UHGV virus genome: UHGV-0268347
Length of the DNA: 27,718 nt
From: a virus
Strand: one strand, 5' to 3'
A model generated the notes under the pieces. The model did no database searches. It saw nothing but the letters and a program-made list of their open reading frames with translations, and had not been told where the DNA came from. Position 1 is the first letter of the stretch. Every line of letters begins with the position of its first letter. Both the position numbers and the translations under genes were made by a program. Below are positions 2,809 to 15,166 of the stretch, piece after piece.

Positions 2809-3855
2809 TTAATGCTCTGTCGCCAATCTGTCGCCATTGTAGGTCAACGAAGGTTGAGCCTTCCCTTTGTTTGTTACAATTTCATCAAAGATAGCTGGAT
2901 TATTATCTTTCAGTAATCTTGCTAGTATAATGATTTGCCCAGACGAGCCATCATCCTTGAATGAAAGGAAATTATCGGTAATATCAAGAATATCAATGGT
3001 AAATTTGAAGTAGGTTTCAATTGTATCGCCAAGTTCAATGCTGGACATGAAGTTAGTAATCATTTCATATCCATCAAAGTATAAAGTTGCATGTTCATTT
3101 AACTCCATGGGAGTTAGGCAAAGCATTCGATTAAGTTCGGATAAGTGTTTTTCTATTGAATGAAGAGATTGCATTTGACGGATTAAAACTTCGTCAAACT
3201 GAGAGCCACGATTAGATGAATTTATCTTCTCTAGGTTTTTTAGTATATCAACCCAGTGATTATTTACTTCACGTATGTATTCTTTATCTGTATTTTTAGG
3301 CCGTCCCTTCTCTGGTGAGCTATTTATGAAAATATATCTATATAGATGTATTGGGTAGTTAATTTTATAACTTATCTCTTTAGTACCATAATGACGTTCG
3401 CGTTTAATGGTTTTGTTAGGTAAATTGGTGAAATAATCAGTAACGAACTTTAGATGGCTATAGTAGCTATCAGATAGATTCTTTTGCTTGGTTTCCTCAA
3501 TTTGTCGGTTTGTTTGAACTGTGCGGTGTATGTTTGCTACGACAGCAACAAATGGTATGGACAAAGAAAGTAAGGCGATAGGAAGCTTGCTAATTGCAAT
3601 GAAATTATTAAAGCCCTCACTATCAAATTGAGGGGAATGTCCAAGCCAGGAAAATATACCAAAGTATATCGCTGAAAATACAGGAATCCTAAGTGATTGT
3701 TTAAATAAGTATTGACTTGTTAATGGCCTTTCATCCATGTTAAAGCCTTTTTTTGATACGCATAGATATAATTCAAGGCATATATATATAAAATATATTA
3801 TGATAAGTAAGTACGATATCCATGGGTATTGTTGGATATAGTTATTAACAAGCAC
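2809..3855 (-). CDS. Hypothetical multi-pass membrane protein (348 aa), AT-rich integrase-adjacent moron
   Basis: ORF between int and att; N-terminus has about three hydrophobic helices (WISYLLIIIYFIYICLELYL, IPVFSAIYFGIFSWLG, LPIALLSLSIPFVAVVANI), then a roughly 230-aa soluble domain; visibly AT-rich. GTG start at 3855 overlaps the int stop, preceded by GGAG; the next in-frame Met is residue 40. Confidence 0.55.
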   Translation of the reverse strand: MLVNNYIQQYPWISYLLIIIYFIYICLELYLCVSKKGFNMDERPLTSQYLFKQSLRIPVFSAIYFGIFSWLGHSPQFDSEGFNNFIAISKLPIALLSLSIPFVAVVANIHRTVQTNRQIEETKQKNLSDSYYSHLKFVTDYFTNLPNKTIKRERHYGTKEISYKINYPIHLYRYIFINSSPEKGRPKNTDKEYIREVNNHWVDILKNLEKINSSNRGSQFDEVLIRQMQSLHSIEKHLSELNRMLCLTPMELNEHATLYFDGYEMITNFMSSIELGDTIETYFKFTIDILDITDNFLSFKDDGSSGQIIILARLLKDNNPAIFDEIVTNKGKAQPSLTYNGDRLATEH

Positions 3856-7486: not shown

Positions 7487-7713
7487 TGGCTGATGCAATG
7501 GATCTCGTACAGCAGCGAGTTGAAGAAGAACGCCAACGTCATATCCGTGCTGCCCGTGCCAAAACGCCGGGCGTGTCCCGCGTGCTTTGCGTTGAGTGTG
7601 AAGCGCCAATTCCGCCAGCACGCCGCCGTGCCATTCCGGGTGTGCAGCTTTGCATTACCTGTCAGGAAATCGCAGAGCTGAAAGGCAAACATTACAACGG
7701 AGGTGCTGTATGA
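7486..7713 (+). CDS. TraR/DksA-type C4 zinc-finger protein
   Basis: 75 aa with CVECEAPIPPARRRAIPGVQLCITCQ (four Cys in C-x2-C...C-x2-C arrangement), as in the small zinc-finger ORFs of P2/186 early regions. Confidence 0.6.
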   Translation: MADAMDLVQQRVEEERQRHIRAARAKTPGVSRVLCVECEAPIPPARRRAIPGVQLCITCQEIAELKGKHYNGGAV

Positions 7714-8567
7714 GCACCATCCTGAAATGGGCGGGAAATAAAACCGCCATTATGTCCGAACTGAAAAAACACCTTCCTGCTGGCCCGCGACTGGTTGAAC
7801 CTTTCGCGGGTTCCTGTGCTGTGATGATGGAGACGGATTACCCCAGCTATCTGGTTGCGGATATTAATCCTGATTTAATCAACCTCTATAAAAAGGTTGC
7901 CTCTGATTGTGAATCGTTTATATCTCGCGCCAGAGTTTTATTTGAGATCGCAAACAGGGAGGTGGCTTATTACAACATAAGGCAGGAGTTTAATTACTCC
8001 ACTGAAATTACTGATTTCATGAAAGCGGTATATTTCCTGTATCTCAATCGTCACGGTTACCGTGGTTTATGTCGCTATAACAAGAGCGGGCATTTCAACA
8101 TTCCCTACGGTAATTATAAAAATCCGTATTTCCCTGAAAAAGAAATTCGCGCATTTGCAGAGAAAGCCCAGCGTGCAACGTTTATCTGCGCAAGCTTTGA
8201 TGAAACGCTGGCGATGCTGCAGGTGGGGGATGTGGTGTATTGCGATCCGCCGTATGACGGTACGTTTTCCGGCTATCACACTGATGGTTTCACTGAAGAT
8301 GACCAGTATCACCTGGCATCCGTTCTTGAACATCGGTCATCAGAAGGACATCCGGTCATTGTTTCTAACAGTGATACATCCCTGATCCGTTCGCTGTATC
8401 GCAATTTTACTCACCACTACATCAAGGCAAAACGCAGCATCGGTGTAGCAGCTGGTGAGAGTAAATCTGCAACAGAAATCATCGCTGTTTCCGGGCCGCG
8501 CTGCTGGGTGGGATTTGATCCTTCGCGTGGCGTGGATAGTTCTGCCGTGTACGGAGTGCGTGCATGA
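7710..8567 (+). CDS. dam: DNA adenine (N6) methyltransferase, Dam family
   Basis: 286 aa; N-terminal KWAGNK motif ([15 protein letters not shown]), [16 protein letters not shown], catalytic DPPY ([10 protein letters not shown]); start overlaps the upstream stop and the stop overlaps the A start. Confidence 0.9.
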
Positions 8568-11330: not shown

Positions 11331-11564
11331 ATGCGCATTGAAATAATGATCGATAAAGAGCAGAAGATTAGCCAGTCTACCCTGGACTCCCTTGAATCCG
11401 AGCTTTACCGCAATCTGAGCCCCCTGTATCCCAAAGCGGTAATTCGTATCCGTAAAGGTAGCGCCAATGGTGTTGAACTGAGCGGGTTAAAACTGGATGA
11501 AGACAAAAAGCGAGTGATAGAAATCATGCAGCAGGTCTGGGAGGACGATAGTTGGTTACATTAG
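11331..11564 (+). CDS. DinI-family protein
   Basis: 77 aa, MRIEIMIDKEQKISQSTLDSLESELYRNLSPLYPKAVIRIRKG...IMQQVWEDDSW; resembles DinI in N-terminal MRIE and C-terminal acidic W motif; RBS gaggtga. Confidence 0.7.
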   Translation: MRIEIMIDKEQKISQSTLDSLESELYRNLSPLYPKAVIRIRKGSANGVELSGLKLDEDKKRVIEIMQQVWEDDSWLH

Positions 11565-11797
11565 CGAACAGAATTTAGCCAAGCGATAAGTCATTCATCC
11601 AAGGGGGCGGCGTTTGCCGCACTTTTATGGATGTTAGAACTAGTATTTTAGATCTTTATTTTATTTAACATTTTGATTGTTATGCATTTTATTTGTTTTT
11701 GTTACTTTTGTCTGTAAAAATTTTGTAGGGTAAAATCATCATCGAAGTCGAGTTAAAATGATGCTACAATCCTTCAAGTATAGAGGGAGGACTTATT

Positions 11798-12838
11798 TTG
11801 ATTAAAGTTGTTGATCTTTTTTGCGGAGCAGGTGGCTTAACTCATGGTTTGCAACGAGCAGGGTTGAATGTGGTTGCAGGCTATGATATTGATGCTACAT
11901 GTCGGTATGCTTATGAAAAAAATAACAATGCTTTATTTGTGCAAAAAAGCGTCACTGAACTTGATGAAGGGGAAATAAGTAAGCATTTTAAGGATGCATC
12001 AATTAAAGTTTTAGCTGGATGCGCTCCATGCCAGCCATTTTCTAGTTATACAAATACTGATAAATCAGTAAAAAAAATAAAAGACCATCGATGGTCTTTA
12101 TTGTATAGCTTTGCTAAGCAAATTCAATTATGTGCTCCAGATATAGTCACAATGGAGAATGTTCCAAGAGTTATTAACCACAAAGTTTTTAAAGATTTTG
12201 TGAAGACTTTAAAGTCTGAAGGGTATTTCGTTTGGTATGATACTGTATTTTGTCCTGATTATGGAATGGCCCAAAGCCGATCTAGATTAGTGTTATTAGC
12301 GTCCAAGTTTGGCGAGATAAAACTAATCCCGCCAACACATGATAAAAATAACTATAACACTGTACGTAGCGTTATTGGTGGATTGCCTCCTATTGATGCT
12401 GGATCGAGTGATGAGAAAGACAGACTTCATTATGCTGCATCTTTATCACCATTAAATATGGAGCGAATAAAACATTCTAAGCCAGGTGGAACATGGAAAG
12501 ATTGGCCTGAGTACTTACGGGCGTCATGCCACACCAAAGAATCAGGATCTTCTTACACTGCAGTTTATGGAAGAATGAGCTGGGATAAACTTGGCTCTAC
12601 AATTACAACACAATGTATAGGTTTTGGTAATGGTCGATTTGGTCATCCAGAACAAAATAGAGCTATTAGCCTAAGAGAGGCAGCTTTGCTTCAATCTTTT
12701 CCTCTAACTTATGAATTTTGGCCAGCTGAAGTAAAAGTTGAACTCAGGAATGTTGCACGACTGATTGGTAATGCTGTGCCGGTGAGGCTCGGTGAAGTTG
12801 TTGGGCAAAGTATTATTGAACACCTTAAAAGAAAATAA
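11798..12838 (+). CDS. DNA (cytosine-5) methyltransferase
   Basis: 346 aa with canonical C5-MTase motifs: I DLFCGAGG, IV GCAPCQPFS (catalytic Cys), VI ENV, VIII QSRSRLVLL, X GNAVPV. TTG start with RBS agggagga and extended -10 (tgcTACAAT) upstream; visibly AT-rich. Confidence 0.92.
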   Translation: MIKVVDLFCGAGGLTHGLQRAGLNVVAGYDIDATCRYAYEKNNNALFVQKSVTELDEGEISKHFKDASIKVLAGCAPCQPFSSYTNTDKSVKKIKDHRWSLLYSFAKQIQLCAPDIVTMENVPRVINHKVFKDFVKTLKSEGYFVWYDTVFCPDYGMAQSRSRLVLLASKFGEIKLIPPTHDKNNYNTVRSVIGGLPPIDAGSSDEKDRLHYAASLSPLNMERIKHSKPGGTWKDWPEYLRASCHTKESGSSYTAVYGRMSWDKLGSTITTQCIGFGNGRFGHPEQNRAISLREAALLQSFPLTYEFWPAEVKVELRNVARLIGNAVPVRLGEVVGQSIIEHLKRK

Positions 12839-12863
12839 AAAGGGCGAATCGCCCTTTTTTTTA
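12839..12863. terminator. Bidirectional rho-independent terminator shared by the convergent gene pair
   Basis: Stem agggcg-aat-cgccct flanked by an A-run on one side and a T-run on the other (aaaagggcgaatcgcccttttttttag). Confidence 0.75.
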
Positions 12864-14819
12864 GATACCATCAACAATTTTCATTATTCGTGCAGCATCA
12901 TCTTTTTTGCTCTGATACTCAGAGTATGCTTGTTTGGATTGTATTATAAGATCGCTATATGTTAATACCTTTGCATTTATAGATTGTAGCTGTGAGCGAA
13001 TATAATTATCTCCACTTCCGTCATAACCTTTGCCGACAAGAAAAACTACATCTATCGGTGGTATTTTTCCGGCAGGGCAACTATTTGGGTTGTTTCTAAA
13101 CCACTGCTCTGTGGCAACAACATATTTCCTTCCTTGACCTACTAATGCCAAAATATCAGGATATACATTTGGTCTTTTCATTTCAATGATGACGTGTTTA
13201 CCTGAAACGGTTTTGAAGGCTATATCAATTCTTGCACCACTTTCAGCGTCAGGGTTAACCTCTTTCAATTCCTTAGTCAGGGTTTGTTCCATAACTGTAG
13301 AACCAGTAACCCTCTCCCATGATGGGTCTAACAGCCATAAGTGGTCATAAAGATATTTTTGTACAGCCTTCTCTAACTCATTGTCATCGGTGATTTTTTG
13401 AAATTTCTCAATAACTTTCAATCGCTGTGATGTAATCTCATAAAAAAGGCTTGCCTCAATATCATTTACAGAAGCAAAAACCTCCCTAAAATGTTCTGAG
13501 TTTAAATCGCTAATTTTATCTAAAGCCTCAAGGTTATCTTTTATTCTTAATCTTTCAAAAGCAAGAACTGTATTTTTTAATACGGTTTTTTTTGCAATTT
13601 TCTGGTTTTCTTCATCTCCAGAAAATCTAAATGTGTTAATTTTGCCTAGTAATTTTTCGGCGCTGTTTCTTTCATGTTTTGACATGGAATCAAGCCAATC
13701 ACTTACAGCAGGTGAAGTTTTTTTAACCTCGCTAAGACCTTTTGCTCTTCGCCATTCATCCCATTCTTTATCTATTTTTTGTAATGTCCGTTCTAAGAAA
13801 CCCTTAATCACAGGATAGCGTGGATCATTCTGCTGTAATTTCTGTCGGGATGAGGTTGCCATGTCAGGTTTTTCATTTTCATCTAAAAAATCTGCGACAA
13901 GTTCCCCTACTAAATAATTTGTAAAAACCTTTGCGCTTCCGAATTCAAGCAATATATCTTCTTCAAATACCCGCCCATTTGATATTACGGTTATCGTGTT
14001 GTTAGATATTTCAGGGTCTTTTTTAAGTTGAGATGGTTTCTCAACACTTCCTACATAACCAGTAATGAAATAATCTACGCCTTCAAAAGATAATTTGTTA
14101 TCTAGAAGGCTTTTTTTAGAAAGATTTTTGCAAGATTTTACTCTTGCGGGATCTGAACTACCAAACTCCCATAAAAATTCAAGATCTGAAAGGAAGTCTC
14201 TATCTTCAGTAGTTATCTCAGTGTCATTGATTTTAACTATAAAATCATGACCAGGACCAATTATGCTAAACCGTCTGGCAAGTCTTTTTCTTAGATAGGT
14301 CTGAGTTCTATCAATGGATTTTTTTAAATCCATAAGAACTATTGTCGTCCCTATACTAAAGTCTTTCGGAACATTAATAATATTTGCAACATATTGTTTA
14401 CTGCTTTTTATACAGCGTTGCAATTCATCAACGTCAACTTCAAATCCCTGAGGCGTTTGGCCAATTTTGTGAGAAAATACTTGGATTTTGTTAGCTAATG
14501 AAAACATTGCTAATTTACCAATGCCTTTTCTACCCATGACTTGTCGTTGTAATCCATCACTTTTATACCTTCCACTTTCTCTTCTGGCATATCCAACTTT
14601 TAGGAATTTATTAATGATGTCATCTTTTGACATTCCATGTCCATCATCTTTAATTATTACCTTTTCATTTTCAACATCTAGAGTGATGTCTACATTTTTA
14701 GCATCCGCATCCCAAGCATTTGAGATTATTTCAGTTAGAACAGCTGGTGTGTTAGAGTAAAGACTCATACCTAAATGATTCAATACATTCAGGTCTATTT
14801 TAATTTCGAAATCGGACAT
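12861..14819 (-). CDS. GHKL-family ATPase fused to a C-terminal PD-(D/E)xK nuclease domain (652 aa); candidate restriction/defence effector
   Basis: N-terminus has Bergerat-fold motifs: N-box EIISNAWDADAKN, G1 IKDDGHGMS, G2 GRKGIGKLAMFS. C-terminus has GARIDIAF...GKHVIIEMKRP (acidic D532 and E546-x-K548 after hydrophobic strands). RBS aaggaaagga; visibly AT-rich. Confidence 0.85.
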   Translation of the reverse strand: MSDFEIKIDLNVLNHLGMSLYSNTPAVLTEIISNAWDADAKNVDITLDVENEKVIIKDDGHGMSKDDIINKFLKVGYARRESGRYKSDGLQRQVMGRKGIGKLAMFSLANKIQVFSHKIGQTPQGFEVDVDELQRCIKSSKQYVANIINVPKDFSIGTTIVLMDLKKSIDRTQTYLRKRLARRFSIIGPGHDFIVKINDTEITTEDRDFLSDLEFLWEFGSSDPARVKSCKNLSKKSLLDNKLSFEGVDYFITGYVGSVEKPSQLKKDPEISNNTITVISNGRVFEEDILLEFGSAKVFTNYLVGELVADFLDENEKPDMATSSRQKLQQNDPRYPVIKGFLERTLQKIDKEWDEWRRAKGLSEVKKTSPAVSDWLDSMSKHERNSAEKLLGKINTFRFSGDEENQKIAKKTVLKNTVLAFERLRIKDNLEALDKISDLNSEHFREVFASVNDIEASLFYEITSQRLKVIEKFQKITDDNELEKAVQKYLYDHLWLLDPSWERVTGSTVMEQTLTKELKEVNPDAESGARIDIAFKTVSGKHVIIEMKRPNVYPDILALVGQGRKYVVATEQWFRNNPNSCPAGKIPPIDVVFLVGKGYDGSGDNYIRSQLQSINAKVLTYSDLIIQSKQAYSEYQSKKDDAARIMKIVDGI

Positions 14820-15059
14820 ATCCTTTCCTTGCTGAAGCTTGTAGGCAGAGCTTAAGCCTACTCATGTGAACAAAATCCCTCGAAACTAAACATTGATTTT
14901 GACTAAATGTCAAATGTAGATGTTGCCTTGTGTAATGCATATCTATGCTGCATGAATACGCATGATCTCTTAAGGATCGCTTTTGTTGAAGCACGCCAGA
15001 ATTGGCGGGCTTTTGCTTATGTCATGCATGTGCATGAAAACTACTACATGAAGCGGGCA

Positions 15060-15078
15060 GGCGTGGCGGGGATACGAG
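15060..15078. other. Probable cos site (cohesive-end region)
   Basis: ggcgtggcggggatacgag shares its first 13 nt with the 186/P2 cohesive end as I recall it (GGCGTGGCGGGGA...), at the expected place between the cargo hotspot and portal gene Q. Confidence 0.5.
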
Positions 15079-15166
15079 CGCGCGCAGCGGGGTAAAATGG
15101 CCAAAATCCGGCGCAGCCTCTGGCCCGCTGGTGGCCTCATTTTGCGTAGGGGGGATAAATGTCAGG

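Follow-up and report, generated by a model that had tools for sequence, protein, structure and literature searches.

Described relatives of the locus

The GHKL domain of the restriction enzyme R.HgiDII, and the combination of GHKL and PD-(D/E)xK domains in the R.VeiORF1182P subfamily, were noted in 2008 in a classification that described the C-terminus of R.HgiDII as "unassigned to any known fold" (Orlowski & Bujnicki; PMC2441816). HgiDII is tabulated there as subtype P among the Type II REases (PMC2441816), and M.HgiDII is reported to be an m5C methyltransferase (MTase) of GTCGAC (PMC5867850). The paraMORC3 proteins, also defined in 2008, have a GHKL domain and an S5 domain followed by a C-terminal restriction-endonuclease fold with the motifs E-D-ExK, and they were linked to DNA methylases and Vsr (Iyer, Abhiman & Aravind 2008). 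GHKL-DUF4263 proteins have been treated as Shedu, type 1D; Shedu nucleases are immune nucleases, with NucS as their closest fold (Gu et al. 2023). In VcSduA of V. cholerae, the substitutions E27A and K557A were each reported in 2025 to abolish defence (PMC12137116).

Here we describe a gene, R, in a 27,718-nucleotide stretch of viral DNA (the window; UHGV virus genome UHGV-0268347). We are largely confident that R supplies the restriction subunit in a two-gene cassette for m5C restriction-modification (R-M) that belongs to the BbrUII/HgiDII family, and that a P2-like prophage of E. coli bears this cassette as accessory cargo in the GpA-cos-GpQ defence hotspot. With R.HgiDII (Herpetosiphon) and R.BbrUII (Bifidobacterium breve), it shares a full-length match, a GHKL N-terminus and an m5C MTase partner, which is related to enzymes of the M.HgiDII type. 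It differs from that family in that the window allele lies on a P2-like prophage and has convergent M and R genes, not the commoner M-then-R operon.

The window protein has the same architecture as paraMORC3, a likeness drawn from architecture and from the depositors' label "ParaMORC3" on a protein of phage PhiR44_1. Many of the nuclease-bearing paraMORC3 genes stand alone (Iyer et al. 2008), whereas the window family is tightly MTase-linked. VcSduA and Shedu type 1D, compared by architecture only, likewise have the same domain architecture. However, VcSduA is a single gene without an MTase, whereas the window system has a conserved cognate MTase and thus departs from the Shedu trait of a single gene with no modification partner. 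A 62%-identical V. cholerae homologue (P0045) was considered as VcSduA and rejected, since 518 residues separate its Glu from its Lys where E27 and K557 imply 530. Unlike MutL, which works with MutH or Vsr, the window protein combines ATPase and nuclease in one polypeptide, and its context is defence, not repair.

A low-GC cassette in a P2-like prophage

The R gene lies in a low-GC cargo cassette of 3367 bp (11564..14930), which replaces 76 bp of empty slot in a P2-like prophage. A blastn comparison with the empty site in E. coli ET846 (locus L082) set the edges, as the flanks match up to 11563 and from 14931. The GC content of the cassette was 34-39%, compared with 52-58% outside it. The gene order places this variable insert of foreign composition between conserved gpA/DinI-like genes and cos/gpQ. 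Of 5426 E. coli genomes searched, 1260 had the flanks and two had the cargo. GpA-GpQ is the main defence hotspot of P2 (PMC13586616; PMC9122126); methylase, MutL, MORC and GHKL are nowhere mentioned in the P2-hotspot paper of Rousset et al. (2022). The viable P2-like phage PhiR44_1 carries, in the same slot, a 78%-identical pair annotated as "ParaMORC3" and "Dcm".

Between the cassette and the portal gene Q, a cos-like sequence was read by eye at 15060..15079 (GGCGTGGCGGGGATACGAGC), which we take to resemble the cos of P2/186. A 19-mer taken as the P2 cos had no match in the window at up to 3 mismatches.

The M gene (11798..12838, plus strand) encodes a C5 cytosine DNA methyltransferase of 346 amino acids from a TTG codon at 11798; the RefSeq start is the ATT at 11795. 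The product matched Pfam DNA_methylase (4.7e-57) and PADLOC MTase_II, and the motifs FCGAGG, PCQ, ENV, QSRSR and GNAVP were found in it. A terminator scan detected a bidirectional hairpin terminator with a 10-bp stem where the M and R genes converge (12837..12859; AAAAAGGGCGAATCGCCCTTTTT). Neither Vsr nor an obvious controller protein was found in the window cassette.

The R gene and its family

The R gene (12861..14819, minus strand) encodes, from an ATG start, a BbrUII/HgiDII-family restriction enzyme of 652 amino acids composed of a GHKL-S5 ATPase, a helical linker and a PD-(D/E)xK nuclease. A Shine-Dalgarno-like stretch (AGGAAAGGA) lies immediately 5' of the start, and the protein is identical to RefSeq WP_047649912.1 from E. 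coli HS4. An earlier note on this DNA had read the ORF as a GHKL ATPase fused to a C-terminal PD-(D/E)xK nuclease in one protein. The ORF is real and both domains were upheld structurally: the note had proposed a structure model and a Foldseek search as a check, and both domain calls survived it (AF2 models, predicted folds).

In NCBIfam, the protein scored 752 bits against the "BbrUII/HgiDII family restriction enzyme" model NF050001, an equivalog-level model with a cutoff of 550, and amino acids 4-651 aligned with profile positions 1-658 of 659. PADLOC assigned it to REase_II (9e-91) and gave no Shedu match at E <= 0.1. An E. coli variant with 72.6% nucleotide identity bears the RefSeq name "BbrUII/HgiDII family restriction enzyme". 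The fusion had been called unusual, but the protein scores above the cutoff of a named family whose architecture has been known since 2008. The fusion itself is thus already known, and the locus adds a member to the BbrUII/HgiDII family.

We examined conservation in 81 homologues that are 35-44% identical to the window protein and are spread across bacteria and archaea in many phyla. Residues E30, N34, D37, D58, G60, G62, G96-K102, G157 and T158 in the ATPase part, and E483, E511, R530, D532, E546, K548 and Q562 in the nuclease part, were conserved in 100% of them. This conservation indicates that both active sites are under selection. The motif matches, profile hits and conservation are far beyond chance.

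The residues singled out in the earlier note were N34, D58/D59, D532, E546 and K548. All lie at the positions it gave, and all are invariant except D59, which is replaced by N in the homologue of Yersinia phage P37 and is missing from the invariant lists. The note overlooked E30, which is the catalytic glutamate in motif I of the GHKL domain. As the counterpart of VcSduA E27 (PMC12137116), E30 is the best target for an ATPase-dead mutant.

ATPase module and linker

The GHKL (Bergerat) ATP-binding domain (amino acids 1 to ~170; 14310..14819, minus strand) has its motif residues in motif I (E30/N34/D37), motif II (D58-x-G60-x-G62), motif III (G96-K102) and motif IV (G157-T158). The three signatures read previously, EIISNAWDADA (30-40), DDGHG (58-62) and GRKGIGK (96-102), are all in place. 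The protein matched Pfam HATPase_c_3 (E 2e-23), and the Bergerat fold was recovered in three dimensions in its predicted structure.

A transducer or S5-like middle domain (amino acids ~171-330; 13830..14309, minus strand) holds the motif DMATSSRQ, in which D319 and R325 are invariant; the basic residue R325 is a candidate for phosphate sensing. The S5-fold transducer directly follows the GHKL domain, and alignments with two-domain ATPase modules (those of MORC3, SMCHD1, MORC2 and TRAP1) cover 281-326 residues. The full-length AF2 model (pLDDT 78.9) matched the N and middle domains of the Hsp90 family in Foldseek (E ~1e-13). Because of this match, the earlier guess of a MutL/MORC-like transducer between the ATPase and the nuclease is right for residues ~170-330; residues ~334-475 form an all-helical linker.

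The boundaries of this linker (amino acids ~331-475; 13395..13829, minus strand) were taken from the AF2 secondary structure, with helices at 334-368, 381-396, 403-426 and 461-475. The pLDDT was 80-90 over 334-430 and lower over 440-470. Profile searches of the R protein and of family members gave no family match for the linker. It is possibly a dimerisation arm, a DNA clamp or a site reader.

Nuclease domain

The C-terminal PD-(D/E)xK nuclease domain, of Shedu/NucS/FokI type (amino acids ~476-652; 12864..13394, minus strand), carries motifs I to IV: E483 in a helix (motif I), E511 on beta1, D532 on beta2 (motif II), E546-x-K548 on beta3 (motif III) and Q562 (motif IV). Here too the previous reading of the motifs was confirmed, with RIDIAF at 530-535 and HVIIEMKRP at 542-550, starting 12 residues after R530.

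Sequence searches of the PDB, with the protein and with a family profile, found GHKL relatives only (Hsp90, MutL) and none for the C-terminus; a fold comparison was therefore needed. Amino acids 458-652 were modelled separately because the full-length Foldseek search of the PDB was swamped by Hsp90 matches. The model (pLDDT 83) had the alpha-beta-beta-beta-alpha-beta core of a PD-(D/E)xK nuclease. With D on beta2 and ExK on beta3, this predicted structure is a C-terminal restriction-endonuclease fold with E-D-ExK motifs. It resembles the solved SduA nuclease domains, and motifs I-IV are present, including the Gln of motif IV. In Pfam SduA_C (DUF4263, PF14082), the window C-terminus scored 18.1 bits over a partial profile, under the cutoff of 27, and a relative (P0037) reached 28.1 bits across positions 3-159 of the profile. 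Matches to SduA_C at E <= 0.01 were obtained for 10 of 47 family members. On these models, the C-terminus of the HgiDII family is a Shedu-type PD-(D/E)xK domain, the fold left open in the 2008 classification.

Proposed mode of action

We propose, tentatively and with less than even confidence, that HgiDII-type enzymes, long grouped with ordinary Type II endonucleases, are ATP-gated MORC/MutL-like clamps whose Shedu-type nuclease fires only after nucleotide-driven dimerisation on unmethylated DNA. In the mechanism that we propose with the R-M assignment, the convergent C5 MTase would mark host and prophage DNA at the family site, probably GTCGAC. The R protein would act as a MORC/MutL-like switch, in which the GHKL domain and the S5-like transducer bind ATP and dimerise, followed by the helical arm and then the nuclease; the fold in this step comes from predicted, monomer models and dimerisation from the biology of GHKL proteins. 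When the DNA is foreign and unmethylated, the two N-terminal domains would close in an ATP-driven step and so put two nuclease domains on the duplex. By analogy with VcSduA, closure would license Mg2+-dependent cleavage by D532/E546/K548. Judging from the location of the cassette, the lysogen would be protected from superinfecting phages, and the pair may serve the prophage as an addiction module.

The R protein might instead be an orthodox, ATP-independent Type IIP enzyme, in which the nuclease domain alone reads and cuts the palindrome and the GHKL domain serves only as a constitutive scaffold for dimerisation or as a regulatory appendage. We consider this rather unlikely. HgiDII was discovered as a classical SalI-isoschizomer activity, which speaks for it. 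So does the listing of HgiDII as subtype P (PMC2441816); if accurate, it means cleavage without a need for ATP and therefore counts against ATP gating. Hints of weak restriction by BbrUII were counted against the main reading. However, the GHKL motif residues are invariant across the 81 homologues, and a mere scaffold would not need such conservation. In VcSduA, with the same architecture, E27A kills defence.

Linkage to the methyltransferase

A C5 MTase adjoined the R gene in 67 of 80 distant loci, in bacteria and archaea, and in 63 of the 80 an MTase orthologue at least 46% identical lay less than 450 bp from R. The usual arrangement elsewhere is an MTase 8-100 bp upstream of R in one operon, whereas M and R of the window are convergent. 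The target-recognition region of the MTase was conserved like its catalytic core (0.55 vs 0.48). The recognition site is probably GTCGAC, extrapolated from two characterized relatives; this conservation and the site reported for M.HgiDII lend it indirect support. GTCGAC occurred twice in the window against 3.75 expected, an uninformative count; by a hand estimate, ~0.4 sites would occur by chance in the 3.4-kb cassette.

In 7 of the 76 loci with adequate flanks, no MTase was found within 6 kb, which counts against the R-M reading. These seven loci would fit a stand-alone Shedu type 1D nuclease that, whatever the methylation state, responds to a cue of infection (DNA ends, DNA structure or misfolded proteins), with the Dcm-like neighbour as an unrelated passenger or orphan methylase. 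The architecture is that of VcSduA, which works as one gene, and GHKL-DUF4263 proteins were counted as Shedu by Gu et al. (2023). We nevertheless regard this as improbable: the adjacent C5 MTase of 67 of the 80 loci co-diverges with R, two R-M systems gave the family its name, and PADLOC gave REase_II and no Shedu match (E <= 0.1).

A Vsr-like ORF lay beside the pair in 27 of the 80 loci and was the sole recurrent gene besides M and R. Judged from their coordinates, the other recurrent "families" at these loci were apparently short ORFs overlapping R or M.

The R protein could also be a repair accessory of the MTase, analogous to Vsr, with a MutL-like ATPase and a NucS/EndoMS-like nuclease acting on T:G mismatches from 5mC deamination. 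This is highly improbable, with a separate Vsr-like gene already present beside the pair at those 27 loci and the cassette located within a phage defence hotspot; likeness to NucS is shared by the Shedu nucleases, which act in immunity. A Type IV, methylation-dependent reading was set aside, as such an enzyme would be suicidal beside its cognate methylase.

Significance

The assignment to a two-gene R-M cassette turns an "ATP-binding protein" of RefSeq into a specific predicted restriction enzyme with a cognate methylase, and provides one further R-M cargo for the P2 GpA-GpQ defence hotspot. Apparently, one architecture has been described under three names: the HgiDII/BbrUII Type II enzymes of REBASE, Aravind's paraMORC3, and Shedu type 1D/VcSduA. 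The compact two-gene cassette of a cultivable E. coli prophage would be a convenient model for the role of a GHKL ATPase that is strictly conserved although the enzyme is nominally ATP-independent. The ATP-gated clamp, if true, would be a mechanistic class apart from Types I-IV, and would make Shedu and classical R-M systems one lineage, differing only in self-marking by the MTase.

Domain architecture of the R protein

The R gene (12861-14819, minus strand) is an intact ORF with an ATG start and encodes 652 amino acids. An earlier note, made by reading the sequence alone, had described its product as a GHKL ATPase fused to a PD-(D/E)xK nuclease. A script located all the quoted motifs where that note had placed them (EIISNAWDADA at residues 30-40, DDGHG at 58-62, GRKGIGK at 96-102, RIDIAF at 530-535 and HVIIEMKRP at 542-550), with N34, D58, D59, D532, E546 and K548 correctly numbered. 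The motif residues, D59 excepted, were invariant across 47 homologues of 43-91% identity, and likewise in 81 sequences from Proteobacteria, Chloroflexota, Acidobacteria, Actinobacteria, Bacteroidota, Thaumarchaeota and other groups, which included 80 distant loci at only 35-44% identity. This invariance, together with a match to Pfam HATPase_c_3 (E = 2e-23), indicates that the motif matches did not arise by chance. Of the adjacent aspartates named as catalytic, D58 is conserved but D59 is not, either in these two sets or in Yersinia phage P37, and the list of catalytic residues had left out E30, the catalytic glutamate of motif I.

A full-length AlphaFold2 model built on the 47-sequence alignment (mean pLDDT 78.9) matched the N-terminal and middle domains of the Hsp90 family in Foldseek (E ~1e-13). 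The guess that a MutL/MORC-like transducer lies between the motifs is thus right for about aa 170-330, but aa 334-475 form a succession of long helices in the predicted model, with no recognisable family. When modelled on its own (pLDDT 83), the segment aa 458-652 had a canonical PD-(D/E)xK core, consisting of a helix (E483), a strand (E511), a strand (D532), a strand (E546 and K548), a helix (Q562) and a strand. The Pfam profile of the Shedu nuclease domain, SduA_C (PF14082), scored a sub-threshold 18.1 bits against the window protein; in a 67%-identical relative, P0037, it scored 28.1 bits, above the cutoff and with the whole profile covered, and it matched at E <= 0.01 in 10 of the 47 relatives. 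The C-terminus is thus predicted to have a nuclease fold, and the domain interpretation stands in these models. Prediction and conservation together show the R protein as a putative MORC/MutL-type ATP switch module joined to a helical arm and a Shedu-type PD-(D/E)xK domain; both predicted catalytic centres are strictly conserved, and the cognate methylase is a conserved companion.

Family assignment and proposed mechanism

The full-length window protein scored 752 bits against NCBIfam NF050001, "BbrUII/HgiDII family restriction enzyme" (curated cutoff, 550), and PADLOC called it a Type II REase (9e-91). Profile comparison puts it, above threshold, in a named restriction-enzyme family. RefSeq lists the identical protein, WP_047649912.1, simply as "ATP-binding protein". 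For an E. coli variant with 72.6% nucleotide identity, RefSeq uses the family name in some copies and "ATP-binding protein" in others.

We infer that the GHKL domains would dimerise on ATP binding, as in MutL, MORC and Hsp90. Dimerisation would bring a pair of nuclease domains to unmethylated DNA and license cleavage by D532, E546 and K548, and methylation by M would block this cleavage. The closest experimental support, by analogy, is from VcSduA of V. cholerae, a GHKL-DUF4263 protein of the same architecture, where E27A (ATPase) or K557A (nuclease) abolished defence and the AlphaFold3 dimer was an entwined clamp; its authors equated the architecture with paraMORC3 and with Shedu type I-D (PMC12137116). 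Gu et al. also described fusions of DUF4263 with HATPase_c_3 and a middle domain of Hsp90/MORC type, and located 602 Shedu genes within R-M systems. An orthodox enzyme that cleaves independently of ATP is a possible but unlikely alternative: HgiDII is listed as orthodox subtype P (PMC2441816), but the invariance of the ATPase motifs and the VcSduA E27A result argue against ATP independence. Our literature search found no biochemical study of the HgiDII-family ATPase.

Prophage setting of the cassette

The window holds a P2-like prophage of E. coli. Genes for integrase, CI, CII, a Dam-like methylase and gpA (804 aa, Phage_GPA) occupy its left side; those for portal Q, terminase P, scaffold O and capsid N occupy its right side. 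Window 2679-27200 was 99.996% identical to E. coli HS4, while 1-2678 was not common to that strain. Comparison with the empty-slot P2-like prophage of strain ET846 delimited a cargo at 11564-14930, with 3367 bp in place of 76 bp and a GC content of 34-39% versus 52-58% for the phage. Besides R, it carries a 346-aa C5 cytosine methyltransferase (11798-12838, plus strand; PF00145, 4.7e-57; all classical motifs present), directly downstream of R and convergent with it; a bidirectional terminator with a 10-bp stem lies between the two stop codons. Among 5426 complete E. coli genomes, the cargo flanks were present in 1260 and the same cargo in 2. Some member of the family was carried by 32 genomes.

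About 130 bp past the cargo boundary lies GGCGTGGCGGGGATACGAGC (15060-15079), a putative cos that resembles the P2/186 cohesive-end sequence and would put the cassette immediately beside cos. The prophage early operon has a D12-class N6-adenine (Dam-like) methyltransferase gene (7650-8567, plus strand), whose end meets the gpA start, so that the prophage has two DNA methyltransferases of unlike chemistry. P2-like phages have their principal defence hotspot in the GpA-GpQ interval, which adjoins cos (PMC9122126; PMC13586616).

Just beyond the integrase end of the prophage lies an RnlA/RnlB (RNase LS) toxin-antitoxin pair (435-1616 and 1609-1971, both plus strand), itself an anti-phage module. 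Between this pair and the P2-type integrase is a 309-aa hypothetical gene (2809-3738, minus strand) of low GC (35-41%), which had no Pfam family and just a weak PADLOC match to '2TM effector' (8e-5). P2 is described as having a minor defence hotspot at integrase-att, and this gene may be part of its cargo.

Partnership with a methyltransferase

A C5 methyltransferase was adjacent to R in 67 of the 80 distant loci (63 at least 46% identical to the window MTase and within 450 bp, 4 more divergent), usually on the same strand and 8-100 bp upstream. In two loci it was 1.9-4.9 kb away, four lacked it with R at a contig edge, and seven had none within 6 kb. This adjacency makes a stand-alone Shedu acting independently of methylation improbable. 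A Vsr-like (very-short-patch repair) endonuclease gene of ~146 aa was the only other recurrent neighbour (27 of 80); the E. coli prophage cassette has no such gene. That R is a MutL/NucS-like repair accessory is very improbable, given these separate Vsr genes and the position of the cassette in a defence hotspot.

The putative target-recognition region of the MTase (aa 180-289) was as conserved as the catalytic core (mean identity 0.55 versus 0.48 in 60 orthologues), which suggests one specificity throughout the family. M.HgiDII is reported to be an m5C methylase of GTCGAC, and M.BbrUII is its homologue (PMC5867850), so our best guess for the recognition site is GTCGAC.

Relatives in phages and archaea

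The cassette is also present in a deposited P2-like phage genome: in Escherichia phage PhiR44_1 (PV340563.1, 5001-8049; recorded host, E. coli C), the GpA-GpQ slot likewise holds a gene 78% identical to R and annotated "ParaMORC3", together with a "Dcm protein" gene convergent with it. Yersinia phage P37 (MT239398.1, 1932-4977; Peduovirus) has a 26%-identical GHKL-nuclease homologue directly behind a C5 methylase. Its ExK motif aligns as E-F-M, with M in place of K548; the lysine may have migrated or the nuclease may be inactive.

An uncultured Cenarchaeum MAG (OY282369.1), from an archaeal sponge symbiont, encodes at least five full-length paralogues (L028, L037, L040, L048 and L072), each retaining every catalytic residue. 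For three of them no methyltransferase lies within 6 kb, and a fourth is accompanied only by one of 26% identity at a distance of 1.9 kb. MAGs of Poribacteria, Latescibacteria and related lineages contributed many of the other homologues.

Relation to known systems

The earlier note had called the fusion unusual, but its architecture was already defined in 2008, and the protein is above threshold in NF050001. Orlowski & Bujnicki (2008) noted the GHKL domain of R.HgiDII, whose C-terminal domain they assigned to no known fold, and described another GHKL REase subfamily ending in a PD-(D/E)xK C-terminus (PMC2441816). Also in 2008, Iyer et al. defined paraMORC3 by its combination of GHKL, S5 and an RE-fold nuclease with E-D-ExK motifs; in paraMORC neighbourhoods they noted cytosine methylases alongside Vsr genes. 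GHKL-nuclease fusions were therefore already known. What the present analysis adds is small: explicit structure and sequence evidence that the unassigned C-terminus of the HgiDII family is probably a Shedu-type PD-(D/E)xK domain. This BbrUII/HgiDII family, classed as "Type II", and Shedu 1D, a single-gene system, appear to have one architecture and to differ in the presence of the methylase.
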